64,000 nt of DNA. Origin: Oceanispirochaeta sp. Its GTDB lineage: Bacteria; Spirochaetota; Spirochaetia; DSM-2461. The stretch covers positions 2,304,001 through 2,368,000 of the forward strand of contig CAXXOA010000001.1 of assembly GCA_963666275.2 (NCBI GenBank), read 5' to 3'. The position numbers and the translations under genes were made by a program. Under the pieces are notes generated by a model, which was not told the origin of the DNA, ran no database searches, and saw nothing but the letters and a program-made list of their open reading frames with translations. Shown one piece after another: positions 24,428 to 40,299 of the stretch. How positions within the stretch are numbered: the stretch's first letter is position 1; each line of letters opens with the position of its first letter.

Positions 24428-25024
24428 CTACTCCAGAGAGAGAAGTATTCGAGCTCTATGGGCTAAAAAGACGTGCTTTTGGATATAGCTGTTCTCCCGC
24501 ATGTCAAAACGGATATCATAAAAAGCCGAATCATAGTCTGACTGAAGCTCCACAACCTGCTCATCACCGTTAAGAAAATACCCTGAAAGCAGGTTATCTC
24601 CCCAGGTATCATCTGTTTCGGATGAGATAAACAGGCCGGTAATGGTATCGCCGGTTTTATTGACAAGGGTAAAGGTCAGCCCCTCTCCCGGAGAGAGGGC
24701 CAGAAGATCCTTGGGCTGGATCAGGATCTTATTCCTTTCTCCCAGATCGATATTGTTTTTCAGATAGATCTCCCCATCCTCGTCAACGAGCCGTATCTTG
24801 TACAGTCCTTCCACAAGATCTTCTTCAAAGGAGACAACTGCAAAACTGTCGTTCAGTATCACATCATAGGGAAGAACATCCTCTCCCCAGTCATTGCTCT
24901 CCTGATCAGTGAAATAGACTTCATAAAGGGGAAACCCCGTTTTATTGACAATAACAACCTCTTCCGCAAAAGAAGAGAAAAGAGAGAGCAGAAGAAGCAG
25001 AAAAATAAAATGCACCTGTCTCAC
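24428..25024 (-). CDS. Secreted protein with two internal repeats
   Basis: Signal peptide; repeats IVNKTG..YEVY....WGEDVL and LVNKTG..ITGLF....WGDNLL; 4-nt overlap with the cyclase gene. Confidence 0.7.
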   Translation of the reverse strand: MRQVHFIFLLLLLSLFSSFAEEVVIVNKTGFPLYEVYFTDQESNDWGEDVLPYDVILNDSFAVVSFEEDLVEGLYKIRLVDEDGEIYLKNNIDLGERNKILIQPKDLLALSPGEGLTFTLVNKTGDTITGLFISSETDDTWGDNLLSGYFLNGDEQVVELQSDYDSAFYDIRFDMRENSYIQKHVFLAHRARILLSLE

Positions 25025-26475
25025 AGCACATCCTCCACCTCGTCCAGCCGGAACTGGTATTCCAGAAGGCTGGCTTTGATATGCTCAAAATAGAGGGGAA
25101 AAAGCAGATTGTAAAAATAACTTGTATGGGCGATGGAGTTCTTTATTTCATCATAGTGAGAGGTAATTTTATACTCCTCCGATTTGATATACTCCGCATA
25201 GCCTGGAAATTCCTGCATGAGCTCCTCATCGTTATCTCTGGGATGCTTCACCGCATCCTGAAGATCACCCAGAATATCCATAAGATCCTTGAGTGTAAAT
25301 TCCTGCTGGATCACTTCCCTTGCCTTCTCTTCATCACCCATGGCCTGTGAAATAAAATACCTGTACCTTCCGGGAAGAAGGAGTCTCAGAAGCTCATCTT
25401 TCCTGATCACAATCTTCAGTTTATTGAAAAGGTCTTCCAGCTTGTTGATCACATACTGGTTTCCCCTGTAGTACTGCAGAAAATCAATGATCCTCGATGC
25501 TCCCGGTTCATCCTTCTGCAGAAGAAGGCCCACCTGCCGGACAAGCTCTTCGGGAAGATTGGGTTCCACCTGAACACTGTAGGTACTGAAACCGGCATTT
25601 TTCTTTTCTTTCAGAAAGACTTTGCTGAACCGGAAGAGCTCGTCTTTTTTAATATTCCTGTAGTCACTGAAAAGGGCGGATGCCTCTCTTGTGAAACGGG
25701 CATGATAGGCATCGACGATCCCCTGATCCTCCAGAAGCCTGTAATACTCCTCGGAAATCCGCAATCCCCCTATCGGAGCTGTTGATTCCATCCTCTTGGC
25801 ATAAATAACAGGCATACCGATAACATCCCAGTGCTTGGCTCCGTCAGGACCGAAGTTTCCGATCTGAACTTTACCGATAGAGGCGCCTACCCTGATACGG
25901 ATCTGAAATAGAGCGTTTATGGAGGGAGAGAGGAATTCATTGTTTCGCAGGCCCCGGATAATATCAAAAGCCTGAAGGATATTATGTTTGGTCTGACTCT
26001 CTTCCTCGGAATAGAGGAATTTGTCGTTGGCCTGATTGAAGAGATTACAGACCCTCTGCAGCTCAACACAGGTATAAAACAGTTCCGTGGAGATATAAAG
26101 ACGGATCTCCTCCTCGGTGAGCCCCTTTGTTTTGGGATCAATCGGACCGCCGTACTGGAACATAAGGCTGTCCCCTTCAATTTTGTTCAGATACCCGCCG
26201 TGTTTTTTCAGAACCCAGTCAAAAGCGGAATAGAGTCCGTTCAGAATGGTCTGATTTTCCTTGGCACTGAGGAATTTGGAAAGGAACGTATAGTCTGCCA
26301 CATCCAGGAATCCAATCCCCACGAGGGCCTCTTCGGACTCTTCGGGAATGGCTCCGAATTCGGAAATAGCATCTATCAGATGTTTGGGAAGATAGTATCT
26401 CTCTATATCATTACGGATTTTCTGATCCTGACTTATGGCGGGCTCTTTTTTCTCTTCTTCACTCACTGGGCTCAT
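25021..26475 (-). CDS. Class III adenylate/guanylate cyclase domain protein (soluble)
   Basis: FLDVADYT, KIEGDSLM, IRVG..G...GNFG....WDVIG..V..AKRMES. Confidence 0.85.
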   Translation of the reverse strand: MSPVSEEEKKEPAISQDQKIRNDIERYYLPKHLIDAISEFGAIPEESEEALVGIGFLDVADYTFLSKFLSAKENQTILNGLYSAFDWVLKKHGGYLNKIEGDSLMFQYGGPIDPKTKGLTEEEIRLYISTELFYTCVELQRVCNLFNQANDKFLYSEEESQTKHNILQAFDIIRGLRNNEFLSPSINALFQIRIRVGASIGKVQIGNFGPDGAKHWDVIGMPVIYAKRMESTAPIGGLRISEEYYRLLEDQGIVDAYHARFTREASALFSDYRNIKKDELFRFSKVFLKEKKNAGFSTYSVQVEPNLPEELVRQVGLLLQKDEPGASRIIDFLQYYRGNQYVINKLEDLFNKLKIVIRKDELLRLLLPGRYRYFISQAMGDEEKAREVIQQEFTLKDLMDILGDLQDAVKHPRDNDEELMQEFPGYAEYIKSEEYKITSHYDEIKNSIAHTSYFYNLLFPLYFEHIKASLLEYQFRLDEVEDVL

Positions 26476-26650
26476 AGAGTTACAGTCTTCTCCATCTGGA
26501 TTATGATGATTTAATAATTATACACACATATTATACATAATTATTGATGATGATTCATTCTTTTTTGGGAATTTCAAATTAATGCCTGTTTACAACCATA
26601 TTGTTACTGATATAATTTCCCCATTCACCGGTGAGAACAGGAGCTATTTT

Positions 26651-27838
26651 TTGGTACTGAATGAAACAGTTGAGAAAAAGATCATACCCATTGCCGGCGG
26701 CAAAGGCGGAGTGGGAAAATCTGTTTTATCTGTGAACATTGCCTTGTCACTGGCAATTTCAGATAAAAGAACAATCCTTGTTGATATGGACCTGGGAGGT
26801 GCCAACCTCCATACAATTCTGGGCATTAAAAACACCAATCCCGGCATAGGCACCTATCTGCAGGATAAAAAGAGGACTTTTCAGTCCCTGGTAATTGAAA
26901 CACCCTACAAGAATCTGCATTTTATCCCGGGGGATACCCTGTCCTACGGCATGGCAGACATTACAGACACCCAGAAAAAGGAGATAATGAAGGAACTTCA
27001 GGAACTGGATGCAGACTATATCATTCTGGATCTGGGGGCTGGCAGCAGCTTCAACACCATCGATTTCTTCCTTATATCCAACTCGGGACTGATTGTGACA
27101 ACACCCCATGCCAGTTCGATTATGAATGCCTATTCATTCACGAAAAACCTGACAATCCGATTCCTTCACAAAGCTTTCAGCAGGCATAAGAAGATGGAGA
27201 GCTACCTCAGAAAGAACATCAGGCGAATGCTTCCGGGATCAAACCTCACCCTGGCTCATCTTCTGGAGGAAGTGGGAAAGGAAGACCCTGAAATCAGGGA
27301 TAAAGCGACAGCCTACCTGGAAGTCCTGCAGCCCAAGCTCATTCTGAATATGATGGAGGAGCAGGAGGATTTCCAGATGGCTGAAAACCTGGGACAGCTG
27401 ATTGCCAAAGATCTGCTTGTCGAGATGGAATGCCTGGGAACCGTACTCTATGACAAGGAGATTGATGAATCCCTTCACAACCGGCAGCCCTTCCTGCTGG
27501 ACCATCAGGATACACTCACAGCCCAGCAGATATTTCGCCTGGGCCAGAAAATCGTGCAATCCCGCCATTTTCCCGAGATGCCCCTGGATATAGCTTCCTA
27601 CGGCAGCTCATTCGGCCTGGCTCAGATTGAAACTGAAAATGATTTTGAGCTCTACAGAAAGATTCAGGAAGAGATCGAAAAACAGAATCAGAGCGAATAC
27701 GATGTGGATCAGCTGATGGAAATCATTGAAAAACAGCAGGAGAAAATCCGTGAACTCCAGAGTACTATCAGGATGATGGGCCTCGGCGGAGGAGGCGGCG
27801 GCGGAAACCCTATGGGAGGGCTCTTCAGCATAGGCTAG
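26651..27838 (+). CDS. MinD/FlhG-like P-loop ATPase with C-terminal coiled coil
   Basis: GGKGGVGKS deviant Walker A, DMDLGGANL, DLGAG; probable TTG start at 26651 after AGGAG (ORF track starts 26582). Confidence 0.85.
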   Translation: MVLNETVEKKIIPIAGGKGGVGKSVLSVNIALSLAISDKRTILVDMDLGGANLHTILGIKNTNPGIGTYLQDKKRTFQSLVIETPYKNLHFIPGDTLSYGMADITDTQKKEIMKELQELDADYIILDLGAGSSFNTIDFFLISNSGLIVTTPHASSIMNAYSFTKNLTIRFLHKAFSRHKKMESYLRKNIRRMLPGSNLTLAHLLEEVGKEDPEIRDKATAYLEVLQPKLILNMMEEQEDFQMAENLGQLIAKDLLVEMECLGTVLYDKEIDESLHNRQPFLLDHQDTLTAQQIFRLGQKIVQSRHFPEMPLDIASYGSSFGLAQIETENDFELYRKIQEEIEKQNQSEYDVDQLMEIIEKQQEKIRELQSTIRMMGLGGGGGGGNPMGGLFSIG

Positions 27839-30820: not shown

Positions 30821-31708
30821 ATGCAGGATATTCGCAGATCTCTTATGATTTTTCACCTGAAAGAAGACTATTCTCAAGTAGAGTTACAGAAAGCCTACAA
30901 AAAACTTGTCAAAAAATACCATCCCGATTACAACCAGCAGAACCAGGAATGGGCACATCAGAAGATGACTGAGATAAATCTTGCCTATGAACTCTGCAAA
31001 GAGAAACTGACAGACACGGAGACGGAAGCTCCGCGGGAAAAGGAATCTCAGCAGCAGTATTCAGGACACAGTTCCGAATCCGACCAGAAAGGATCCAACC
31101 CCTTTCAGCGGGAACAGCCCTATCAGGGAAATCCTTCTGCCCAGCCCCTAAGCGCTGAATTCCACAGGCAGATGCAGAAAACGACCTACGCCTTCTGCCA
31201 TGCCACGGATATTTTTTATGAATACGGCCTGCACAACCGCTTTCTCCGCTATGAGGGAAACCGAAAATTCCGCTACCGTCAGTGTCTGAGAGAGCTGGAA
31301 GCGGTGATTGATTCCATCAGGGATCTAACCCCCTTAACACGGACCAGCTATGACAATCATATAAAAGGAATCTATTCCAGATTTATTCTGAACTATTACT
31401 GTTTCATTATACTGGACGAGGGAGATATCCCCCGTCATCCTAATATCAATTCTCATTGGAATAAAATGGAAGAGTATCTGAACAAGAGTCTGATTGAATA
31501 TCTTGCCTCTCATCTGACAGAACAGTTTAAGAGGACCAGCTGGCAGGTATCTCTGGCTCACTGCCTCACTCACATACAGTATCTGCAGAGGAAATTCCCC
31601 GCACTGGAAAAAGAGGATACATTTATTCGTATTGTGAGACTGGCAGAAAGCTATACAGAGATACGTCAGGAAGAAGAGCGGAGTCACCTCCGCTTCTTCC
31701 TTCCCTGA
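30821..31708 (+). CDS. J-domain (DnaJ-like) protein with uncharacterised helical C-terminus
   Basis: KAYKKLVKKYHPD...EINLAYE. Confidence 0.85.
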   Translation: MQDIRRSLMIFHLKEDYSQVELQKAYKKLVKKYHPDYNQQNQEWAHQKMTEINLAYELCKEKLTDTETEAPREKESQQQYSGHSSESDQKGSNPFQREQPYQGNPSAQPLSAEFHRQMQKTTYAFCHATDIFYEYGLHNRFLRYEGNRKFRYRQCLRELEAVIDSIRDLTPLTRTSYDNHIKGIYSRFILNYYCFIILDEGDIPRHPNINSHWNKMEEYLNKSLIEYLASHLTEQFKRTSWQVSLAHCLTHIQYLQRKFPALEKEDTFIRIVRLAESYTEIRQEEERSHLRFFLP

Positions 31709-31710
31709 GA

Positions 31711-34323
31711 CTATTCCTGCTTCAGATTCTTCTGTGCCACTGCCAGTTTGGCAATGGGTATTCCATAGGGAGAGCAGGATACATAATTCAGTCCCTGATC
31801 CATACAGAATTCAACATTTTCCGGTTCAGCACCATGCTCTCCGCACAGCCCGAGTGTGAGATCAGGCCTGACAAGCCGCCCCCTCTCTGCTGCAATGGAA
31901 ACCAGTTCCTTAACAGGACTGTTCAGGTATTTGAAAGGATTTCTCTCCAGAAGGTCAAATTCATTGTAATCCGTAAAGAACGAATTAAAGTCATCCCTTG
32001 AGATACCATTGGTTGTCTGGGTAAGATCATTTGTTCCGAAACTGAAGAAATCCGCATATCGGGCGATCTTATCTGCCTGCAGGGCAGCACCGGGCAGTTC
32101 AATCATGGTTCCCACGCGATAGGGAATCGGTTCGGAAACGTCAAACTTCTGCCTTACAGCCAGTTCCACATCCCGGATTCCCAGAATCTCCGTTCCTTCG
32201 ATCCTTTTACCGAAGCGCATAGATTTCACTTCCCGTTCGGACATGACTACAGGGAGCATTATCTCGGGCGAGGTGACAATACCGTCTTCTTTCAGAAGCT
32301 TGTAGGCCGCTTCAAAAATAGACCGTACCTGCATGGCATAGATCTCGGGAGTGGAAATACCGACCCTGATACCTCTATGCCCCAGCATGGGATTCACTTC
32401 TCCCATCATATCACAGCGCAGACGGATATCCGCATCACTCACATCGGGATGATCCTTTTTATAGAACTCTATAAAATCATTCATACTGTCCCTGGTATGA
32501 GGCAGAAACTCATGAAGAGGAGCATCAAGGAGACGGATTGTCACCGGATGGCCTTCCATAATTTTAAAGAGATTATAGAAGTCGGAAGTCTGCATGGCTC
32601 CCAGTTTCTCAAGGATCTTAAAACGGTCCTCTTTCTCTTCCGCAATGATCATAGAACGGAAAAGCGGGATCCTCTCTTCATCGAAGAACATATGCTCAGT
32701 CCGGCACAGACCTATCCCATCAGCTTTGAACAATTTGGCAAGCTGAGCGTCTTTCGGCTGATCCGCATTGGCATGAACATCAAAATCCCCGATGAACTTC
32801 TGAATGATTTCCAGAAACTCAAGAATACCGCTCTCTTCAATGACAGGTTTGATAAGTTTGACCTGATCAAAATAGATTGTCGGTTTATCATAGGAGGGAA
32901 CATCAAGACTGATATAGTCTCCCTCTTTGATCACATGATCCCCTACCTTCACGGAGGATTTAAGGAATTTGATATCCGGGTTGACCATGGCGACCTTTCC
33001 CAGACTTCTGGCGACAACCGGTGCATGGGAAGCATAGCCCCCATCCATGGTCAGTACACCCTGGGAGACCTCAATGGCTTTGACATCTTCCGCATAGGTG
33101 GAGGGCATACAGAGGATAAAATTGGAATCCAGTCCCCTCTGTGTTGCTATACGATGCTCCTGCATCAGTTTTTCAGTAGAAAAATAGACTTTTCCCACAG
33201 CGGCGCCAACAGATCCGGAAATTCCCCCGTAATAGGAAGGCATCTTCTCTGCAGAAGCCTTATCAATCACAGGATGGAGTATTTCCGCCAGTCTTCCCGG
33301 CTGAATGGCGTTCACCACATATTCATCACTGACAACTTTTTTCTGATTCAGATCCAGAAGAGTCCTTATATGGGCCTGGGTGGATTTATTGTCCGCCGCA
33401 TTCTGGTCAATAACCCAGAGTCGTCCGTCTTCTACGGTGAATTTGATGGACCGGATCTCTTTATAGTGGGTTTCAAGCTGATTGGCTATGGATCTCAGTT
33501 CTTCAAAATACTCATTTTTTATTTCAGTGACGGGATTTCCCTCGGACTGGGTTGCATCGAAAGAGTTGATAAAAAACTTTCCGGAAATGACATTTTCCCC
33601 GTCAACAATATTGCGGGTATAGTAACTTCCGAAAAAACTCTCTTTTCCGTAATTTCCAAAGGTCATTGCCTGAATCAGAAGAGCTGAATCATTCAGGGTT
33701 TCGCTTTCTTTGAGGTACCTTGTATAGAGAGACTGGACGTAACTCAGCTGCGCCCAGGCATCGGAAAAGATTTCCTGAGGGTATACCCCTTCTACTTCGA
33801 CAAGTACATCTTTGGTCTTTTTTGCGGTTTTACACTTTTCCAGAGAATCCGCAAGCTTCTGAAGGACCTTCCTTCTGTTCCCATCCGATTCAATCTCCAG
33901 GTCAAGAGTAATGATTCTCCGAAGCATATTCCTGTATTCGTGGTAGGCAAATTCCTCACCGACGAATTTGGCAAAACCATCTATGGTATTTTTGCAAAGT
34001 CCAATGTTATGAAGACTTGAAAAGGTATCAATCAAATTCAGCTGAGGACTGAGGACACATTTGACAAGAAGAGGATTTTCGCTGTCTCCGTACTGTTTTT
34101 CCACCACATTTCCCATGGACTCGATAGATTCATGGATTTTGCTGCTGAAAGAACCGGGATCTGCCAGTTCAGCCAGTAGAGAGTCGTTGGAAAGGACGTA
34201 TCCCGGTAGAATGGGAATACCCAGTCCTGCAAGATGCATCAGCCTCCGGCCTCTGTATCCCAGCACATCGAGAACATCTTTATCTTCGGTATAAGCTGTA
34301 CTGCTGAATGAATAAATATCCAT
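31711..34323 (-). CDS. Pyruvate phosphate dikinase-like PEP-utilising protein with degenerate nucleotide-binding domain
   Basis: Full PPDK architecture; GGYASHAPVVAR (His433), GIGLCRTEHMFF, TIRLLD, GTMIE, SFGTNDLTQ and GLCGEHG intact; ATP-grasp motifs substituted. Confidence 0.9.
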   Translation of the reverse strand: MDIYSFSSTAYTEDKDVLDVLGYRGRRLMHLAGLGIPILPGYVLSNDSLLAELADPGSFSSKIHESIESMGNVVEKQYGDSENPLLVKCVLSPQLNLIDTFSSLHNIGLCKNTIDGFAKFVGEEFAYHEYRNMLRRIITLDLEIESDGNRRKVLQKLADSLEKCKTAKKTKDVLVEVEGVYPQEIFSDAWAQLSYVQSLYTRYLKESETLNDSALLIQAMTFGNYGKESFFGSYYTRNIVDGENVISGKFFINSFDATQSEGNPVTEIKNEYFEELRSIANQLETHYKEIRSIKFTVEDGRLWVIDQNAADNKSTQAHIRTLLDLNQKKVVSDEYVVNAIQPGRLAEILHPVIDKASAEKMPSYYGGISGSVGAAVGKVYFSTEKLMQEHRIATQRGLDSNFILCMPSTYAEDVKAIEVSQGVLTMDGGYASHAPVVARSLGKVAMVNPDIKFLKSSVKVGDHVIKEGDYISLDVPSYDKPTIYFDQVKLIKPVIEESGILEFLEIIQKFIGDFDVHANADQPKDAQLAKLFKADGIGLCRTEHMFFDEERIPLFRSMIIAEEKEDRFKILEKLGAMQTSDFYNLFKIMEGHPVTIRLLDAPLHEFLPHTRDSMNDFIEFYKKDHPDVSDADIRLRCDMMGEVNPMLGHRGIRVGISTPEIYAMQVRSIFEAAYKLLKEDGIVTSPEIMLPVVMSEREVKSMRFGKRIEGTEILGIRDVELAVRQKFDVSEPIPYRVGTMIELPGAALQADKIARYADFFSFGTNDLTQTTNGISRDDFNSFFTDYNEFDLLERNPFKYLNSPVKELVSIAAERGRLVRPDLTLGLCGEHGAEPENVEFCMDQGLNYVSCSPYGIPIAKLAVAQKNLKQE

Positions 34324-34354: not shown

Positions 34355-35305
34355 CTAGAACAGATCAAGAACGCTGTTCACTGCTCCTCTTAAAAATACT
34401 TCAAACCGGGGACTGGCCCCTTCAAAAAGGTACTTTCTCAATTTGGAAACATCTTTGATATCATCACCGGCAACACTGAACATAATGGGATTTCCGTGTT
34501 TTACCTTTCCCCATTTGAAAAGGGCATTGATATCATTGATTCTCTCTCCATCGTACCATATCAGAACATCCAGTCCGGGATGCTTGTTTTTATAACTTTC
34601 AATAATTTTTTTCCAGGCTTCCACATTTCCATTGTGGAACAGCTCATTGGTAACCAGAACCGCATATTTGGTAGACACTTTTCGTGATCCTCCGGCAGCA
34701 GGACTAGCAGGAGCAGCCGTTGTTTCGGGTTCGGGAGAGGCTGCAGGCTGAGCAGTTTCTTCAGGTTTCACATCAGGATCAACATAGGCTTTTTTAGTCC
34801 TGATCTTCTTTCCTTCCAGCAGGGAAAATATGTCATTGCAGGCCGAATTCTCAGTTTCCTGATCATCCTCTCTGGCGCTTTTTACAAAACATACCATCAG
34901 TTCATCCTGATAGAGGGGAAGAAGGGCATCCCATTGCTCGCTCTTTGTCGGATTGAGAACAGAAAGATCGCCGTTGGAATCATAAAAAGCAAGAACAATA
35001 TCGAGGAGTGTCCATTCTGAAACAGTTTCAACAAGCTTCTCAACAGACTCTATAGACTTGGTAAGATTCACCGAACGGCAGGTATATCCGAACTTATCGA
35101 CAAGTAAAAGATTGAGTACAGGCCTCAGCTGCTGAGGAGAGATTTCTCTCTCCTCAATAGCTTCAGTCAGTACATCAGCCAGATTAACCCCGTCCTCCAC
35201 ATCACCTGAGAAGGACAGAGCTTTTTTAAAATGCCCCAGAGCAAGGTTAAAACCTGCTCTGGTGGATAACAAATTGAATTTATTATCACTGATGTTTTGA
35301 GTCAT
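34355..35305 (-). CDS. Two-domain protein with C-terminal HPr-like domain (by-eye alignment)
   Basis: Starts 1 nt after the cfpA stop; Pro/Ala linker, then VLVTNELFH(224)NGNVEAWKKIIESY...DVLIWYDG...ALFK...HGNPIMFSVAGDD. Confidence 0.7.
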   Translation of the reverse strand: MTQNISDNKFNLLSTRAGFNLALGHFKKALSFSGDVEDGVNLADVLTEAIEEREISPQQLRPVLNLLLVDKFGYTCRSVNLTKSIESVEKLVETVSEWTLLDIVLAFYDSNGDLSVLNPTKSEQWDALLPLYQDELMVCFVKSAREDDQETENSACNDIFSLLEGKKIRTKKAYVDPDVKPEETAQPAASPEPETTAAPASPAAGGSRKVSTKYAVLVTNELFHNGNVEAWKKIIESYKNKHPGLDVLIWYDGERINDINALFKWGKVKHGNPIMFSVAGDDIKDVSKLRKYLFEGASPRFEVFLRGAVNSVLDLF

Positions 35306-35306
35306 A

Positions 35307-37262
35307 TCAGATCTCGCTTAATTCATCCAGATTGACTTTCTTCCTTTTGGAAGGAGTTACGTCAGCTTGCCCCTTAGGTGCATCATTTTTGCTTTTGATG
35401 GCGGCAGCATACTCAGAAGAGGAAGCTTCAGCCATTGGCTCAGCAGCAAAGCTCTGGTTAATATCCTCACGAACAGTGGACCGTCTCCGTTTGAAGGAAG
35501 CGAATGCCGCATCCTGGAATCCTTTGGAAACACCATTGAGGAACTCATTCATGACGTTAGCCATGCTGTTCAGTGTGAATTTTTTCCGTTTGATACTGCA
35601 GATATCCATATCCAGAACCAGACCGGGCTGAACATGGTAGGGGTTGATCATATAATCAAACTCATTGAACTGGGATTCCAGGAAGTCGATTCTCTGATCC
35701 ATAACCACTCTGGTTTTGGGATTTTCATAACCGAAAGTTGTAGAAACTTTTTCCCTTGTCCGACGCAGCATTTTCAGCATCAGTTCTTTTTCATACAGAT
35801 AGGTCTGATTGAGACGTTCAACATCGGTGTCTTCCACTCTCAGTTTCATGATCTCATTCCAGTTTTTCTCCTGTTCTTCATAGATAGGATCACCGGAAAC
35901 TTCCTTGATCTGTTTTTTGATCTGGGGAGCAACTTTTTTGGCCAGGTCATCAAAGTCATTGATTCCTCTGGCTTTTTTGCCCTGGTAGACAACTTCTGCT
36001 ACATCCCAGATGTGAAGAACTTCCCTATGGAATTCATCCATCTGATCATCATAGTTCTTTCTCAGTTTTTCCAACTGATCATTATCATAGAACTTCAGCA
36101 TGATTTTGTAGCGTTCATCAGGCAGGTTGAGAGGATCTGTATCTTCGTACTCCCTGACAATCAGCTCACGGGCATTTTTAAGGTTTTCAATATACTGATA
36201 TCCCATTTTACTGGTATCCAGAATTGAAGTCAGATTGTTGACTGCAGTATTGAAACCTCTGTTTCTGATGTTTTCATTGTCAATAATCTTTTTGATATTC
36301 TCACGGATATTCTGGGGATCGAATTCATCCTTTGAAATTTCCGCTCTCAGACCTTCGATTTTTTCTACCAGATTTTTTGCCATGAAAGCATATCTTCTGG
36401 AGTTTTCATCTTCTTTCTCGTCATCGGTAAAGTCGGGAACTTTTTTGATCCGTTCGAACATCAGTTCGGTATCGGTTAGTTCTTCTTTTCCTTCATCAAC
36501 AAGCTGATCCTGAAGGACTTCAATTTCCTTATCAATCATGTCCATAACTGTTTTGGAAATCTGATCTTTGATGATGTACTCAACAGAAGCCTGATACTGG
36601 AAGATCGGGCTTATAAGTTCAGATTCCAGGATATTTATGGAAAGTTTAACATCAGTTACAGTTTTGGGCTTGTAGGCATTGTCTTTGAATGCACACTTGA
36701 TGATGGAGTAGGCATTTTCACCACGTATAAATGCACCAACATCAGTTTTCTGACGCAGCAGAGCATTTGTCTCATTTTCAAGGTCATTCAAACCACGCTG
36801 TACATGTCCCTGCAGATGTCCGTACATATTAACGATGGATTTTTCAATCTCACCTGTATTGAACTTGTCTGCACCACCGATCTGATCGAGCATTTCCGCA
36901 ATTTCTTTCGGGGTATACCGGGCAAGGGATTTCTGTTCTTCCTTGTCGATGAAACCACGAATTTTTTTAACCATTTCATCTTCAGTGGTAACAACGTACC
37001 TGTTGAACATGTTCTGGTAGTTCTGGTTGTAGTAATTGTAGAGCTTCTGTTTCAGACCACCCATAACGTCGAGCTGTTTAAGCACTTCAGGGGGCAGTTT
37101 TGTCTGCAGCTCATTTAGAATCTTATCTGATTCTTCCTGTACTACACGTTCGAATTCTTCATTCTGAGAACGTCCTTCCTGAGCAAGACTGTTTCTTGAA
37201 CCGACTGCTGAAGGTTTAGTTGGATGAAATACATTAGGACTTCTGGGAAGATCGCCAGCCAT
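35307..37262 (-). CDS. cfpA: Cytoplasmic filament protein A
   Basis: N-terminal [25 protein letters not shown], plus [13 protein letters not shown] and [15 protein letters not shown], recognised as treponemal CfpA; coiled-coil rich; RBS GAGGAG. Confidence 0.9.
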
Positions 37263-37328: not shown

Positions 37329-37356
37329 ATTATAGTACATCGTTTCTCTTTTCCAA
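37329..37356 (-). promoter_or_regulatory. Putative sigma70 promoter of the cfpA operon
   Basis: Minus strand TTGGAA-16 bp-TATAAT in an AT-rich intergenic region. Confidence 0.5.
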
Positions 37357-37452: not shown

Positions 37453-40299
37453 TCAATCGATCAGGGAAAGGATCTTTCTCCGCAGCTGTTCACTCATGGA
37501 ACCTTCGGCGAGGGTTTCCATTCGGCCGGAAACGGAGCTCTTTTCTGCAGGAGTGACTGCCCTGTCCAGTTCTCTTTTCAGTTCCTCCAGTGTCTCCAGC
37601 CTCTGTTCCATATCTCGTCTTATCAGACGGGAGGCTATGAACCAGATAGTATCCCCCCGGACAACTTCATATTCACTTCCGTCGGGAAGTTCAAGAAGAT
37701 TCCCGGCCCAGATCCAGTCAGGGTTCTTCCCTTCGAAGACCCTGTAATCCAGATCCCGATAGCCGTTGCGCACCGCAATGTCATTGGAAACAAGATGGAT
37801 ATCCACAAGGGTTATCTGCAGATCATCCATTTTCAGATAGGCCCGGGCCTCCTCTACTGTAACAGGACGCCGTTCGGTTTCAACCACTGGAGGAAGAGAT
37901 GCGGGCTCCTCGGAAGCACTCTCTTCAGATGCGCTCATACTGGTACCGGAGTCACTCTCACCAGGAGCCCCTTCGGTTTCAGACTGAACAGGAAAAGCTG
38001 CGCTTTGATCTTCTGAGGCTTCATTCGCATCAGCCGTTTCAACTCGGGAATCTCCGGAAACCTCGCCGTCGTTCTGACTGACGGCAGCTGAAACACCACC
38101 GTCTTCTCCCGCCATTCCGGGTGTGACCTCCCCGGAACTTCCGGTGCCGTCAATGGCTCCGGATTCACTGACTGTTTCGGCCCCGGAGGCCTTAGTCCCG
38201 GTAGATTCAGCTTCCATCTGCCGGGAGGAATTTCCTTCACTTCCTGACGATTCTGCGGCTCCGTTTTCCTTATCTGACTGGTCTGAATCTGTATTTTCTC
38301 CGGCCGAACCGGCCCCTGAGGATTGAGCAGAACTGTTTTCACCTGAAGATGCCACAGCAGGATTTTCCTGCCGGCCAGCTGCCATGGCTCTTTCACCTTC
38401 AGAATTCGTTATTCTGAAGAAAGCAAAAGTACCGCTTCCCAGCAGGAGGAGGACAAGGAGAATTGCCAGGGGAAGGAGAGATCTCCGTTTTTTTGCCGGA
38501 GCTTTTCTTCCACCGCTTCCCAGAGAGCCTGATTTCCCCAAAGGTCCTGATGAGGAGGGAGAGGACAGGGAGCCCTTCCCTGAAGGAGGAGTCGTCTTAT
38601 TCACCGCTCCCTGATTTGCTGCAGCTGATGCAGCCGTTTTTACCGGTTCGGATTGTCTTTCCGGGCGCCGGGAGTCTGATAGGGAAGCTGCCGCTGAAAG
38701 GGAACTTCCTGTCAGTGAATTGAGCAGACTTTCCAGACGGGCTCTTTCACTCTGATAGAATTTCAGGTCGGGCATCTCAAGATCAGACATACCCTCGGAA
38801 ATTTCTTCCGCCTTTCTCAGATTATAGGGGTTCAGCTTGTGAGTAGATATCCGGTAGAGAACAAAAGGATCTCTGTAACCATGATAAAGGTCTCCCAGAA
38901 CCGGGAGGTAGACGGAGGGAAAATCCCAGGAGGACAGGATTTCCACAAGGGATTCCACGGCACTGCTGTAATCCCCTTTTGCCAATTTCAGAAGCTCCAC
39001 CGCATTGCTGAGGAACAGGTATTCCAGCCCCGGAGTGGATGGTTTGAGGCGGGAAAAAGCTGAGAGGTCAATCTCAGCATCGCTGCCGCTGAGGGCCATC
39101 TCTATTTTTGTTTCCAGAGCGTAGAATGGCTCCCATCGGTCCCGGCTGTCCCAGGCTTCAAGATAGGAGTGCAGAAAACCCAGATACTTGGATGCCATAC
39201 CGACAAGGTCCGGGAGCTTTTTTTCAAGAAGGAGCGGGTATCCCCTGAGAGGAGTAATTTCAATATCCTCCCCTTCTTTGCTCCGCCATACAAGAGTTGT
39301 TCTGTCGGAACTGACATGCCATCCGGATTTTCGGGAAACCTGGGGATCAGATGATCCGAAAGGAATGAAGAGCGCATTGTCCTCACCGAACTGAACCTTG
39401 AGGATCTCCCCTTCAATGGAGGATTTCATATTTCCCTGGGTCCAGTCGGAACCGGACTTCAGAAGCACAGGTTTTACAGGAGAGGAATTTCCAGAACCTC
39501 CATCGGGAAAAAGTCTGACAAGGTGGTCCGGAATTTCCGGGCTGGTTGTCAGAATGGTCAGATCCTTTTTCCGCAAAGCCCTTCTTTTTATATGCTGTAC
39601 AAGGGATTCCCGATGATCATAGCTCATCTGTTCCTGAGGAAGATGGGTAAATACAGAACAGACTTCATCGGGGTCTATCCCCAGAGACGCCAGTTCGGCA
39701 AAAAAATGATTTTCAAGATCCAGAGCCATCCACTCTTTATTGTAAAGATAGAATTTCCCCTTGCCGCTGACAAAAAATCCCGGCTTGTTCAGTTCTTCCC
39801 GGGAGTAGCGCAGAGGGTTATTAACAAGGAGTTTTTTGATTTCATCGCATCGCTGCAGACAGTGTCTGTCCGCGACTTCCCGCTTCTGAAGATCAAAAAG
39901 GAGGTTACCGTCAAAATTGAGATGGATATTCCCGTTGTTGTAAAAATACAGTGTATGCCTGTTACCGCCATCTTTGACCTGTCTGTAATCGGTCAGATCC
40001 CGGGCCGGAAGATTGAGGCTTTGAAAGAATTTGCGGAAATGTTCAATAACGTCCACATCCCCCAGGTAGGATAGTTTGTGACGCCTGGCATATTCGACTT
40101 CCTGGAATGGATTCCCTGTAAAACTGGAAGTTATTATGATGCGTGAGGTAATTTTATGAAGAGCTTCCGGAATATCCGGAATGTTTCCGATTCTCAGGAA
40201 GGGATTTTCATCATCCCGATCGCTGCCGAGATAGATAACATAACACTCCTGGCCCAGTTGAAAAACTCTCTGACTGATATCTCTGCTGCCTGGAATCAT
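37453..40299 (-). CDS. Large bitopic membrane protein: cytoplasmic domain, TM, acidic linker, C-terminal LysM-like domain
   Basis: Single TM LLPLAILLVLLLLGSGTFAFF after KKRR; S/E/G-rich linker; NPDWIWAGNLLELP and YEVVRGDTIWFIA LysM half-motifs; RBS GGAGG. Confidence 0.75.
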   Translation of the reverse strand: MIPGSRDISQRVFQLGQECYVIYLGSDRDDENPFLRIGNIPDIPEALHKITSRIIITSSFTGNPFQEVEYARRHKLSYLGDVDVIEHFRKFFQSLNLPARDLTDYRQVKDGGNRHTLYFYNNGNIHLNFDGNLLFDLQKREVADRHCLQRCDEIKKLLVNNPLRYSREELNKPGFFVSGKGKFYLYNKEWMALDLENHFFAELASLGIDPDEVCSVFTHLPQEQMSYDHRESLVQHIKRRALRKKDLTILTTSPEIPDHLVRLFPDGGSGNSSPVKPVLLKSGSDWTQGNMKSSIEGEILKVQFGEDNALFIPFGSSDPQVSRKSGWHVSSDRTTLVWRSKEGEDIEITPLRGYPLLLEKKLPDLVGMASKYLGFLHSYLEAWDSRDRWEPFYALETKIEMALSGSDAEIDLSAFSRLKPSTPGLEYLFLSNAVELLKLAKGDYSSAVESLVEILSSWDFPSVYLPVLGDLYHGYRDPFVLYRISTHKLNPYNLRKAEEISEGMSDLEMPDLKFYQSERARLESLLNSLTGSSLSAAASLSDSRRPERQSEPVKTAASAAANQGAVNKTTPPSGKGSLSSPSSSGPLGKSGSLGSGGRKAPAKKRRSLLPLAILLVLLLLGSGTFAFFRITNSEGERAMAAGRQENPAVASSGENSSAQSSGAGSAGENTDSDQSDKENGAAESSGSEGNSSRQMEAESTGTKASGAETVSESGAIDGTGSSGEVTPGMAGEDGGVSAAVSQNDGEVSGDSRVETADANEASEDQSAAFPVQSETEGAPGESDSGTSMSASEESASEEPASLPPVVETERRPVTVEEARAYLKMDDLQITLVDIHLVSNDIAVRNGYRDLDYRVFEGKNPDWIWAGNLLELPDGSEYEVVRGDTIWFIASRLIRRDMEQRLETLEELKRELDRAVTPAEKSSVSGRMETLAEGSMSEQLRRKILSLID

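Follow-up and report, generated by a model that had tools for sequence, protein, structure and literature searches.

What does a paralogue of pyruvate phosphate dikinase (PPDK) do when its phosphoenolpyruvate (PEP) site is complete and the residues of its nucleotide site have been replaced? The question is raised by a gene of 870 amino acids (aa) in the window analysed here, a stretch of 64,000 nucleotides from Oceanispirochaeta sp. (GCA_963666275.2, contig CAXXOA010000001.1). An earlier note on this DNA described the gene as a PPDK with a 'selectively dead' nucleotide-binding domain. It missed that, judged by sequence, the gene is one member of a widespread Spirochaetota clade, which includes Treponema pallidum TP0746 (Swiss-Prot PPDK_TREPA) and is linked with cfpA and with an HPr-like neighbour, the likely phosphate acceptor. 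We consider it moderately probable that the paralogue is a dedicated PEP:protein phosphotransferase whose acceptor is His224 of this neighbour, in a module serving the CfpA filament. We observe the residue pattern, the selection, the gene order, the co-occurrence and a single descent from within PPDK, and infer the transfer steps.

The PPDK-derived protein and its nucleotide domain

The gene and its domains, assigned from the open reading frame (ORF), Pfam and TIGRFAM matches, PDB relatives, an alignment and a model, are as follows.

31711..34323, minus strand: PPDK-derived protein, TP0746 family, 870 aa
33259..34323, minus strand: N-domain, aa 1-355, a remodelled ATP-grasp (without the canonical Mg-ATP residues and with newly conserved ones)
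32824..33258, minus strand: swivelling phospho-His domain, aa 356-500 (His433 codon 33025-33027)
31714..32823, minus strand: PEP/pyruvate TIM barrel, aa 501-870 (R541, R597, E742, N765, D766, C827; clade-specific insertion at aa 705-710)

The frame is intact and the closest solved structures are PPDKs over its full length. The Pfam models for the mobile His and PEP-binding domains both match above their cut-offs. PPDK_N (PF01326) reaches only 19.3 bits, under its cut-off of 27, compared with 188 bits for the canonical paralogue in the same genome, and the full-length model TIGR01828 gives 654.6 against a cut-off of 843.45, compared with 1342.4 for the paralogue. The AlphaFold2 model (predicted local distance difference test, pLDDT, 87.3) has a three-domain ATP-grasp/His/TIM-barrel fold and best matches maize PPDK (Z 40.3, root-mean-square deviation (rmsd) 7.3, 819 aligned). 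In this model the N-domain retains the ATP-grasp fold (9goj_A, Z 15.5, rmsd 3.1, 216 aligned within aa 1-313), and the His domain matches 2fm4 (Z 16.6, rmsd 1.8).

We compared active-site residues with the chains of Clostridium symbiosum PPDK and, in one alignment, across 67 canonical PPDKs and 144 derived proteins. The derived set consisted of 118 of the 120 listed matches to the N-domain (two short ones were excluded), from a search that matched 248 protein clusters, and of 26 proteins from loci. Ten PPDK residues are listed from 1DIK in an excerpt of PMC13147460, five of them in the nucleotide domain. All five are replaced in the 870-aa protein (K22 by R24, R92 by V90, D321 by S292, E323 by K294 and R337 by A309), with the same pattern across the 144 members. 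The QGEDVVAG motif, E279 and D280 are replaced as well. The remaining listed residues, H455, R561, R617, E745 and D769, are all retained, and His433, R541, R597, E742, N765, D766 and C827 are present in 144/144 derived proteins. Single mutants at nucleotide-site positions of the PPDK ATP-grasp domain are reportedly inactive or impaired.

The derived clade has also fixed residues of its own in this domain, namely R24 (143/144) and K88, S92, R291, D/E306 and Q307 (144/144 each), and it retains Q240, G245, N246, G254 and R259 in 143-144 of 144 proteins. Because the pocket holds a new invariant residue set, the N-domain is remodelled rather than dead, and it is under purifying selection. The earlier note was right that the frame is intact, that the equivalents of H455, R561, R617, E745, N768/D769 and C831 are kept, and that the loss lies mainly in the nucleotide domain, but 'dead' is too strong. 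Its list of lost residues also needs correction: K22 is indeed replaced, although by a conservative and fixed Arg, and Q335 may be retained as Q307 or as D/E306, since a one-residue insertion leaves the alignment ambiguous. Its point about regulation holds as far as the residue goes, with Ala431 standing two positions before His433 in place of the Thr of PPDK. This has little bearing, however, as the PPDK regulatory protein (PF03618) was found in 0/5 genomes searched, those being the window's genome and four others.

Could the new pocket still serve a small molecule? In that case the protein would be a re-tooled phosphotransferase whose R24, K88, R291, K/R294, D/E306 and Q307 bind a nucleotide or another phosphorylated acceptor (e.g. 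ADP or AMP), and ATP would still be made from PEP by a changed mechanism. The retained ATP-grasp fold speaks for this, as do the invariant basic and acidic residues that the old pocket has gained. However, the position of C. symbiosum E323 (294 here) is Lys or Arg in 128/144 derived proteins and acidic in none, and the positions of R337 and E279/D280 vary across the clade. The tie to cfpA and the partner is also left unexplained, and we regard this possibility as quite unlikely; the metabolic evidence on it is given with T. pallidum below.

The change is concentrated in the N-domain. Of the positions invariant in canonical PPDKs, 21 have been kept there and 73 lost by the derived clade, compared with 20 kept and 19 lost in the His domain and 102 kept and 17 lost in the PEP domain, counts of invariant positions that are inflated by a Pelagibacter-rich canonical set. 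The N-domain is also the least conserved part inside the derived clade, with a mean identity of 40% versus 61% among canonical PPDKs, as would be expected of a decaying duplicate. Decay is nevertheless refuted by open, stop-free frames of the derived gene in all 87 genomes that carry it, by the fixed new residues and by an N-domain ratio of nonsynonymous to synonymous substitution rates (dN/dS) of 0.04-0.05 (against two relatives; dS is saturated and the values are rough), which leaves it a negligible chance. In a tree of the PEP domain, 23 derived rows fall on one side of a 100/100 branch with a long stem. The clade branches among PPDKs, apart from Enzyme I and PtsP, in a tree with two Enzyme I rows, and has a single origin inside PPDK. 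Selection and the single clade support the neofunctionalisation that the earlier note had preferred to decay.

Compared with PPDK (EC 2.7.9.1; C. symbiosum 1DIK/1KBL, maize 1VBG), the derived protein is alike in its three domains, swivelling His domain, complete PEP site and descent. It differs in the replaced nucleotide-site residues, the new invariant pocket residues and the insertion, and a canonical copy usually coexists with it. That it is an ordinary PPDK of divergent sequence, as annotated, is in keeping with its full-length fold and with the name given to TP0746 in Swiss-Prot and in papers. Against this stand the replacement of 5/5 listed nucleotide-site residues and the TIGR01828 score, and the papers, in the sections that deal with TP0746, word its activity as 'most likely' and cite no assay. 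We hold this explanation to be very improbable.

Other PPDK relatives, rifampin phosphotransferase (5HV1) and the PigC/RedH ligases, have likewise kept the swivelling His and one half-reaction and replaced the other. In these enzymes the ATP half is kept and the PEP domain is replaced; the derived protein is their opposite, with the PEP half retained. The model aligns with 5hv1 over aa 1-487 (Z 14.2, rmsd 11.0, 326 aligned).

The insertion in the PEP barrel (aa 705-710; window 32194-32211, minus strand) carries G705, K706, E709 and G710 in 23/23 derived proteins and is absent from the 67 canonical ones. It is a candidate contact for the partner or the filament.

The cfpA gene cluster across Spirochaetota

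The PPDK-like gene is the third of three genes on the same strand, after cfpA and a TP0747-like gene.

35307..37262, minus strand: cfpA, for the 651-aa cytoplasmic filament protein A (1058.9 bits with NCBIfam NF040882, whose cut-off is 500)
34355..35305, minus strand: TP0747-family protein, 316 aa, PF27497 (TP_0747_N) (family match, predicted model and alignment)

The 316-aa gene lies 1 nucleotide (nt) from cfpA and 31 nt from the PPDK-like gene. The treponemal cfpA loci (T. pallidum TP0748-TP0747-TP0746; T. denticola TDE0842-0844) hold the orthologues in identical order, with identities to the window's proteins of 62% for CfpA, 36% for the partner and 47% for the PPDK-like protein. According to part of PMC3914990, TDE0842-0844 are co-repressed in T. 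denticola.

We surveyed the co-occurrence of the three genes in 251 genomes of Spirochaetota, which are kin, and hence give no test statistic. The derived N-domain was found in 87/251 genomes (best E at most 6.4e-42; next genome 4.5e-32), with the class call based on motifs in 24/87 genomes and on the E-value gap in the remainder. The identical 87/251 genomes hold the C-domain of the TP0747-like protein. The two genes are adjacent in 82 and unlinked in five genomes of one family, where both are still present. cfpA also occurs in 87 genomes, 86 of them shared with the carriers of the other two genes, and 163/251 genomes have none of the three. Of the two mismatches, one (G044) has a contig that runs for just 46 nt beyond the partner match; the other (G228) is 93% complete with cfpA standing alone. 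A weak match to the partner domain in G182 was dropped, as it contains a stop and has no matching ORF.

The arrangement recurs in metagenome loci that were selected through the partner domain, with the PPDK-like gene downstream in 63/63 and cfpA upstream in 56/62 with room for it. The partner gene was not found in the viral contigs or plasmids searched. A search of the protein atlas yielded no usable match for CfpA, and the yeast two-hybrid table of PMC2386257 is uninformative: TP0746 is absent from it, TP0747 has five low-score preys outside the cluster and TP0748 has one.

Upstream of cfpA, both in the window (37453-40299, minus strand) and in 9/26 related loci, lies a gene for a 948-aa protein with no family match, a possible fourth member of the cassette in part of the clade. 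One genome (G005) holds two additional cfpA paralogues (L275:6692-8506 and L276:6421-8244) with neither of the partner genes nearby.

The predicted HPr-like partner

The 316-aa protein is laid out as a helical N-terminal part, a predicted HPr-like domain 1, a flexible linker and a predicted HPr-like domain 2.

34808..35086, minus strand: predicted HPr-like domain 1, aa 74-166 (9s8b_C, Z 8.3, rmsd 2.0, 80 aligned)
34403..34669, minus strand: predicted HPr-like domain 2, aa 213-301 (with the candidate acceptor of phosphate, the invariant His224, codon 34634-34636)

When the model of the partner (pLDDT 80.7; predicted template modelling score, pTM, 0.56) was compared with 48,161 chains, the top four were all HPr, and NPr ranked seventh. 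The three best chains for domain 1 (taken as aa 74-167) were HPr (Z 8.3, 7.9 and 7.5; rmsd 2.0-2.4, 80 aligned). This domain has no conserved His, and its sequence signal to HPr did not rise above shuffles; nor did sequence homology between domains 1 and 2. Domain 2 best matched HPr 1kkl_H (Z 7.1, rmsd 2.5, 77 aligned). Its profile against 31 HPrs gave a weak signal above controls (P 0.009; local score 19.9, with 0/40 column shuffles as high), in an alignment that places His224 on His15 and Asp258 on Ser46. In the model, His224 stands at the start of helix 225-241. It is invariant in 123/123 aligned proteins, 59/59 locus matches and 80/80 metagenome loci; the aligned proteins and the locus matches are overlapping sets, and the metagenome loci were retrieved with His-containing patterns. 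No fusion of the partner to other domains was found among 6097 longer candidates, which is weak evidence.

Compared with HPr, the partner is a two-domain protein of 316 aa without Arg17, Pro18 and Ser46. Asp258, at the Ser46 position, would help to insulate it against the Enzyme I and HPr of the cell, as HPr biochemistry suggests.

The same features can be read without onward phosphate transfer. The protein and its partner could be structural elements that assemble on CfpA, for instance to bridge or anchor it. PEP would still phosphorylate His433 and so shift the domains, whereas His224 would receive no phosphate and be just a part of a binding surface. Such a filament-bound switch or scaffold would suit the strict co-occurrence with a cytoskeletal gene, the long invariant patch around His224, the absence of Arg17 and Pro18, and a domain 1 without a His. 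It would also suit a high transcript level in T. pallidum, reported in a section of PMC8525777, and the title of one paper, which refers to unidentified components that bridge and anchor the filaments. Yet it would then be a coincidence that an invariant His occupies the His15 position of HPr beside a conserved phospho-His donor, and we judge this explanation unlikely.

The partner also ends in an invariant Leu315-Phe316 (window 34358-34363, minus strand; 123/123), which suggests a recognised C-terminal tail.

A possible relay, T. pallidum and annotation

A relay from PEP through His433 to His224 is the simplest reading, because the PEP step is intact, the nucleotide step is gone and an HPr-like protein with an invariant His is always present. 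In the first step, PEP would phosphorylate His433, as suggested by full conservation of the site and by chemistry common to PPDK and Enzyme I (PMC5371819, in part). The His domain would then swing to the N-domain, which likely no longer binds Mg-ATP and now docks the partner through the basic residues that it has gained. The predicted fold, position and invariance of His224 suggest that the phosphate would be handed to this residue. Finally, the PEP:pyruvate ratio may set the phosphorylation state and so tune filament assembly, anchoring or a role in division. This last step, to which gene co-occurrence points, is the weakest of the scheme. CfpA itself carries invariant His13, His149, His153 and His543, which are candidates for onward acceptors.

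The proposed relay resembles Enzyme I with HPr, and Enzyme I-Ntr (EI-Ntr) with NPr, in passing phosphate from PEP to a His and on to a His of an HPr-fold protein. A PEP barrel and a phospho-His domain with their catalytic residues are likewise found in Enzyme I and the derived protein. Unlike Enzyme I, the derived protein has no helical HPr-binding domain (PF05524) among its Pfam domains and branches inside PPDK, and the genome retains its own Enzyme I and HPr. On the relay reading, the pair works like Enzyme I and HPr, is a member of neither family and does not pass the PPDK residue test.

Several points weigh against the relay. The Z of 7.1 for domain 2 is middling and tied with those of two unrelated alpha/beta folds, a phosphoglucosamine mutase domain (6.9) and aIF2-alpha (6.6), and the profile probability of domain 2 against HPr is only 4-8%. 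Pfam and PDB sequence and profile searches did not detect HPr in the partner (chance matches; the PF00381 cut-off was not reached). Arg17 and Pro18 of HPr are replaced by Gly226 and Asn227, and His224 lies within a nearly all-invariant stretch of 13 residues, which makes its invariance unspecific. No downstream EIIA-like acceptor travels with the cassette genes, and the relatedness of the genomes overstates the co-occurrence. A last point comes from T. pallidum, where the metabolism fits a retained ATP-yielding role and favours the re-tooled kinase described above.

The genome that encodes PPDK_TREPA (G088; one contig, 99% complete) has no pyruvate kinase, no canonical PPDK and no PPDK_N match, and its PEP-binding domains are limited to the TP0746-type protein and one Enzyme I-like protein. 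PEP synthase is also absent. Since pyruvate kinase and canonical PPDK are missing from the T. pallidum genome, either the enzyme acts via a rebuilt site or the flux goes elsewhere. G088 holds genes for GTP-dependent PEP carboxykinase (GTP-PEPCK) and oxaloacetate decarboxylase beta, whose sequences point to a possible bypass from PEP to pyruvate and weigh against a kinase role. Together, GTP-PEPCK and oxaloacetate decarboxylase can convert PEP to pyruvate with a gain of GTP. In G000 (C2:315050-317823) the two genes lie side by side on opposite strands. Of 50 carriers examined, canonical PPDK is present in 45 and pyruvate kinase in 46, so the derived protein is not needed there as a glycolytic enzyme; the presence of both in most carriers also speaks against the re-tooled kinase.

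More tentatively, the relay can be extended to a wider scheme, which we regard as possible and would not yet back. Here PPDK would have given rise to a second relay of the Enzyme I/HPr type, a private channel coupling the PEP:pyruvate ratio to a bacterial cytoskeleton, the CfpA filament ribbon with its links to division and chromosome state, and the old ATP pocket would dock a protein acceptor. T. pallidum, without PPDK and pyruvate kinase, would end glycolysis via GTP-PEPCK and a sodium-pumping oxaloacetate decarboxylase.

These results call into question whether TP0746 carries out, as annotated, the final and ATP-yielding reaction of glycolysis in T. pallidum (PMC10013896). In the passages concerned, this paper and PMC8525777 treat TP0746 as a glycolytic PPDK without an assay; papers on the treponemal locus leave TP0747 as hypothetical, and their relevant sections make no mention of the lost nucleotide site or the HPr-like fold. 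If true, the relay reading would also apply to the sole 'PPDK' of the syphilis agent and would mean that a protein phosphorelay driven by PEP has arisen from a metabolic enzyme for a second, independent time. Two candidate partners are named for CfpA, the loss of which in T. denticola leads to filamentation, chromosome condensation and lost infectivity (PMC3398590, in part). The gene order has likely been mentioned in print before. Our literature search, whose scope excluded the original cfpA papers and the majority of subscription journals, found no paper naming TP0747 or describing such a relay.

The mislabelling as PPDK that the earlier note expected is real. TP0746-type proteins are named PPDK in Swiss-Prot, GenBank and JGI; RefSeq now uses 'putative PEP-binding protein'. 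The proteins of G088 carry the public names PPDK_TREPA, Y747_TREPA and CFPA_TREPA, and further proteins take their public names from T. denticola and Spirochaeta africana. The note had also asked whether the window's genome has a second, canonical ppdK, and one was found (L002), with all motifs present. The genome further encodes two pyruvate kinases, Enzyme I, three further Enzyme I-like proteins and HPr. PF05524 was found in the three Enzyme I-like proteins scanned. One Enzyme I-like protein (L006:28-2091, plus strand) has a GGDEF domain fused at its N-terminus, and two (L005 and L007) have GAF domains.

A second PPDK derivative of 789 aa occurs in the same genome (L272:5700-8069, minus strand, equal to G000:C2:2208699-2211068). 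It has His and PEP domains with intact catalytic motifs, no nucleotide domain and an unassigned C-terminal part of ~240 aa. It sits on a long branch in the tree and adjoins an operon that, read by eye, is molybdenum-hydroxylase-like.

Two weak regulatory features flank the cassette, and the window's counts of promoter sites and terminators were no higher than chance when compared with shuffles.

37329..37356, minus strand: sigma-70-like site upstream of cfpA (10/12 matches; 12 sites versus 10.0 +/- 3.3 in shuffles)
31677..31694, minus strand: terminator-like hairpin directly 3' of the stop codon of the 870-aa gene (7 found versus 5.1 +/- 2.1 in shuffles)

A J-domain protein gene (30821-31708, plus strand) is convergent with the PPDK-like gene, an arrangement repeated in 7/26 related loci. 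A few kilobases downstream of the cassette lie genes for a MinD/ParA-type ATPase (26582-27838, plus strand) and for a protein with an adenylate/guanylate cyclase domain (25021-26475, minus strand).

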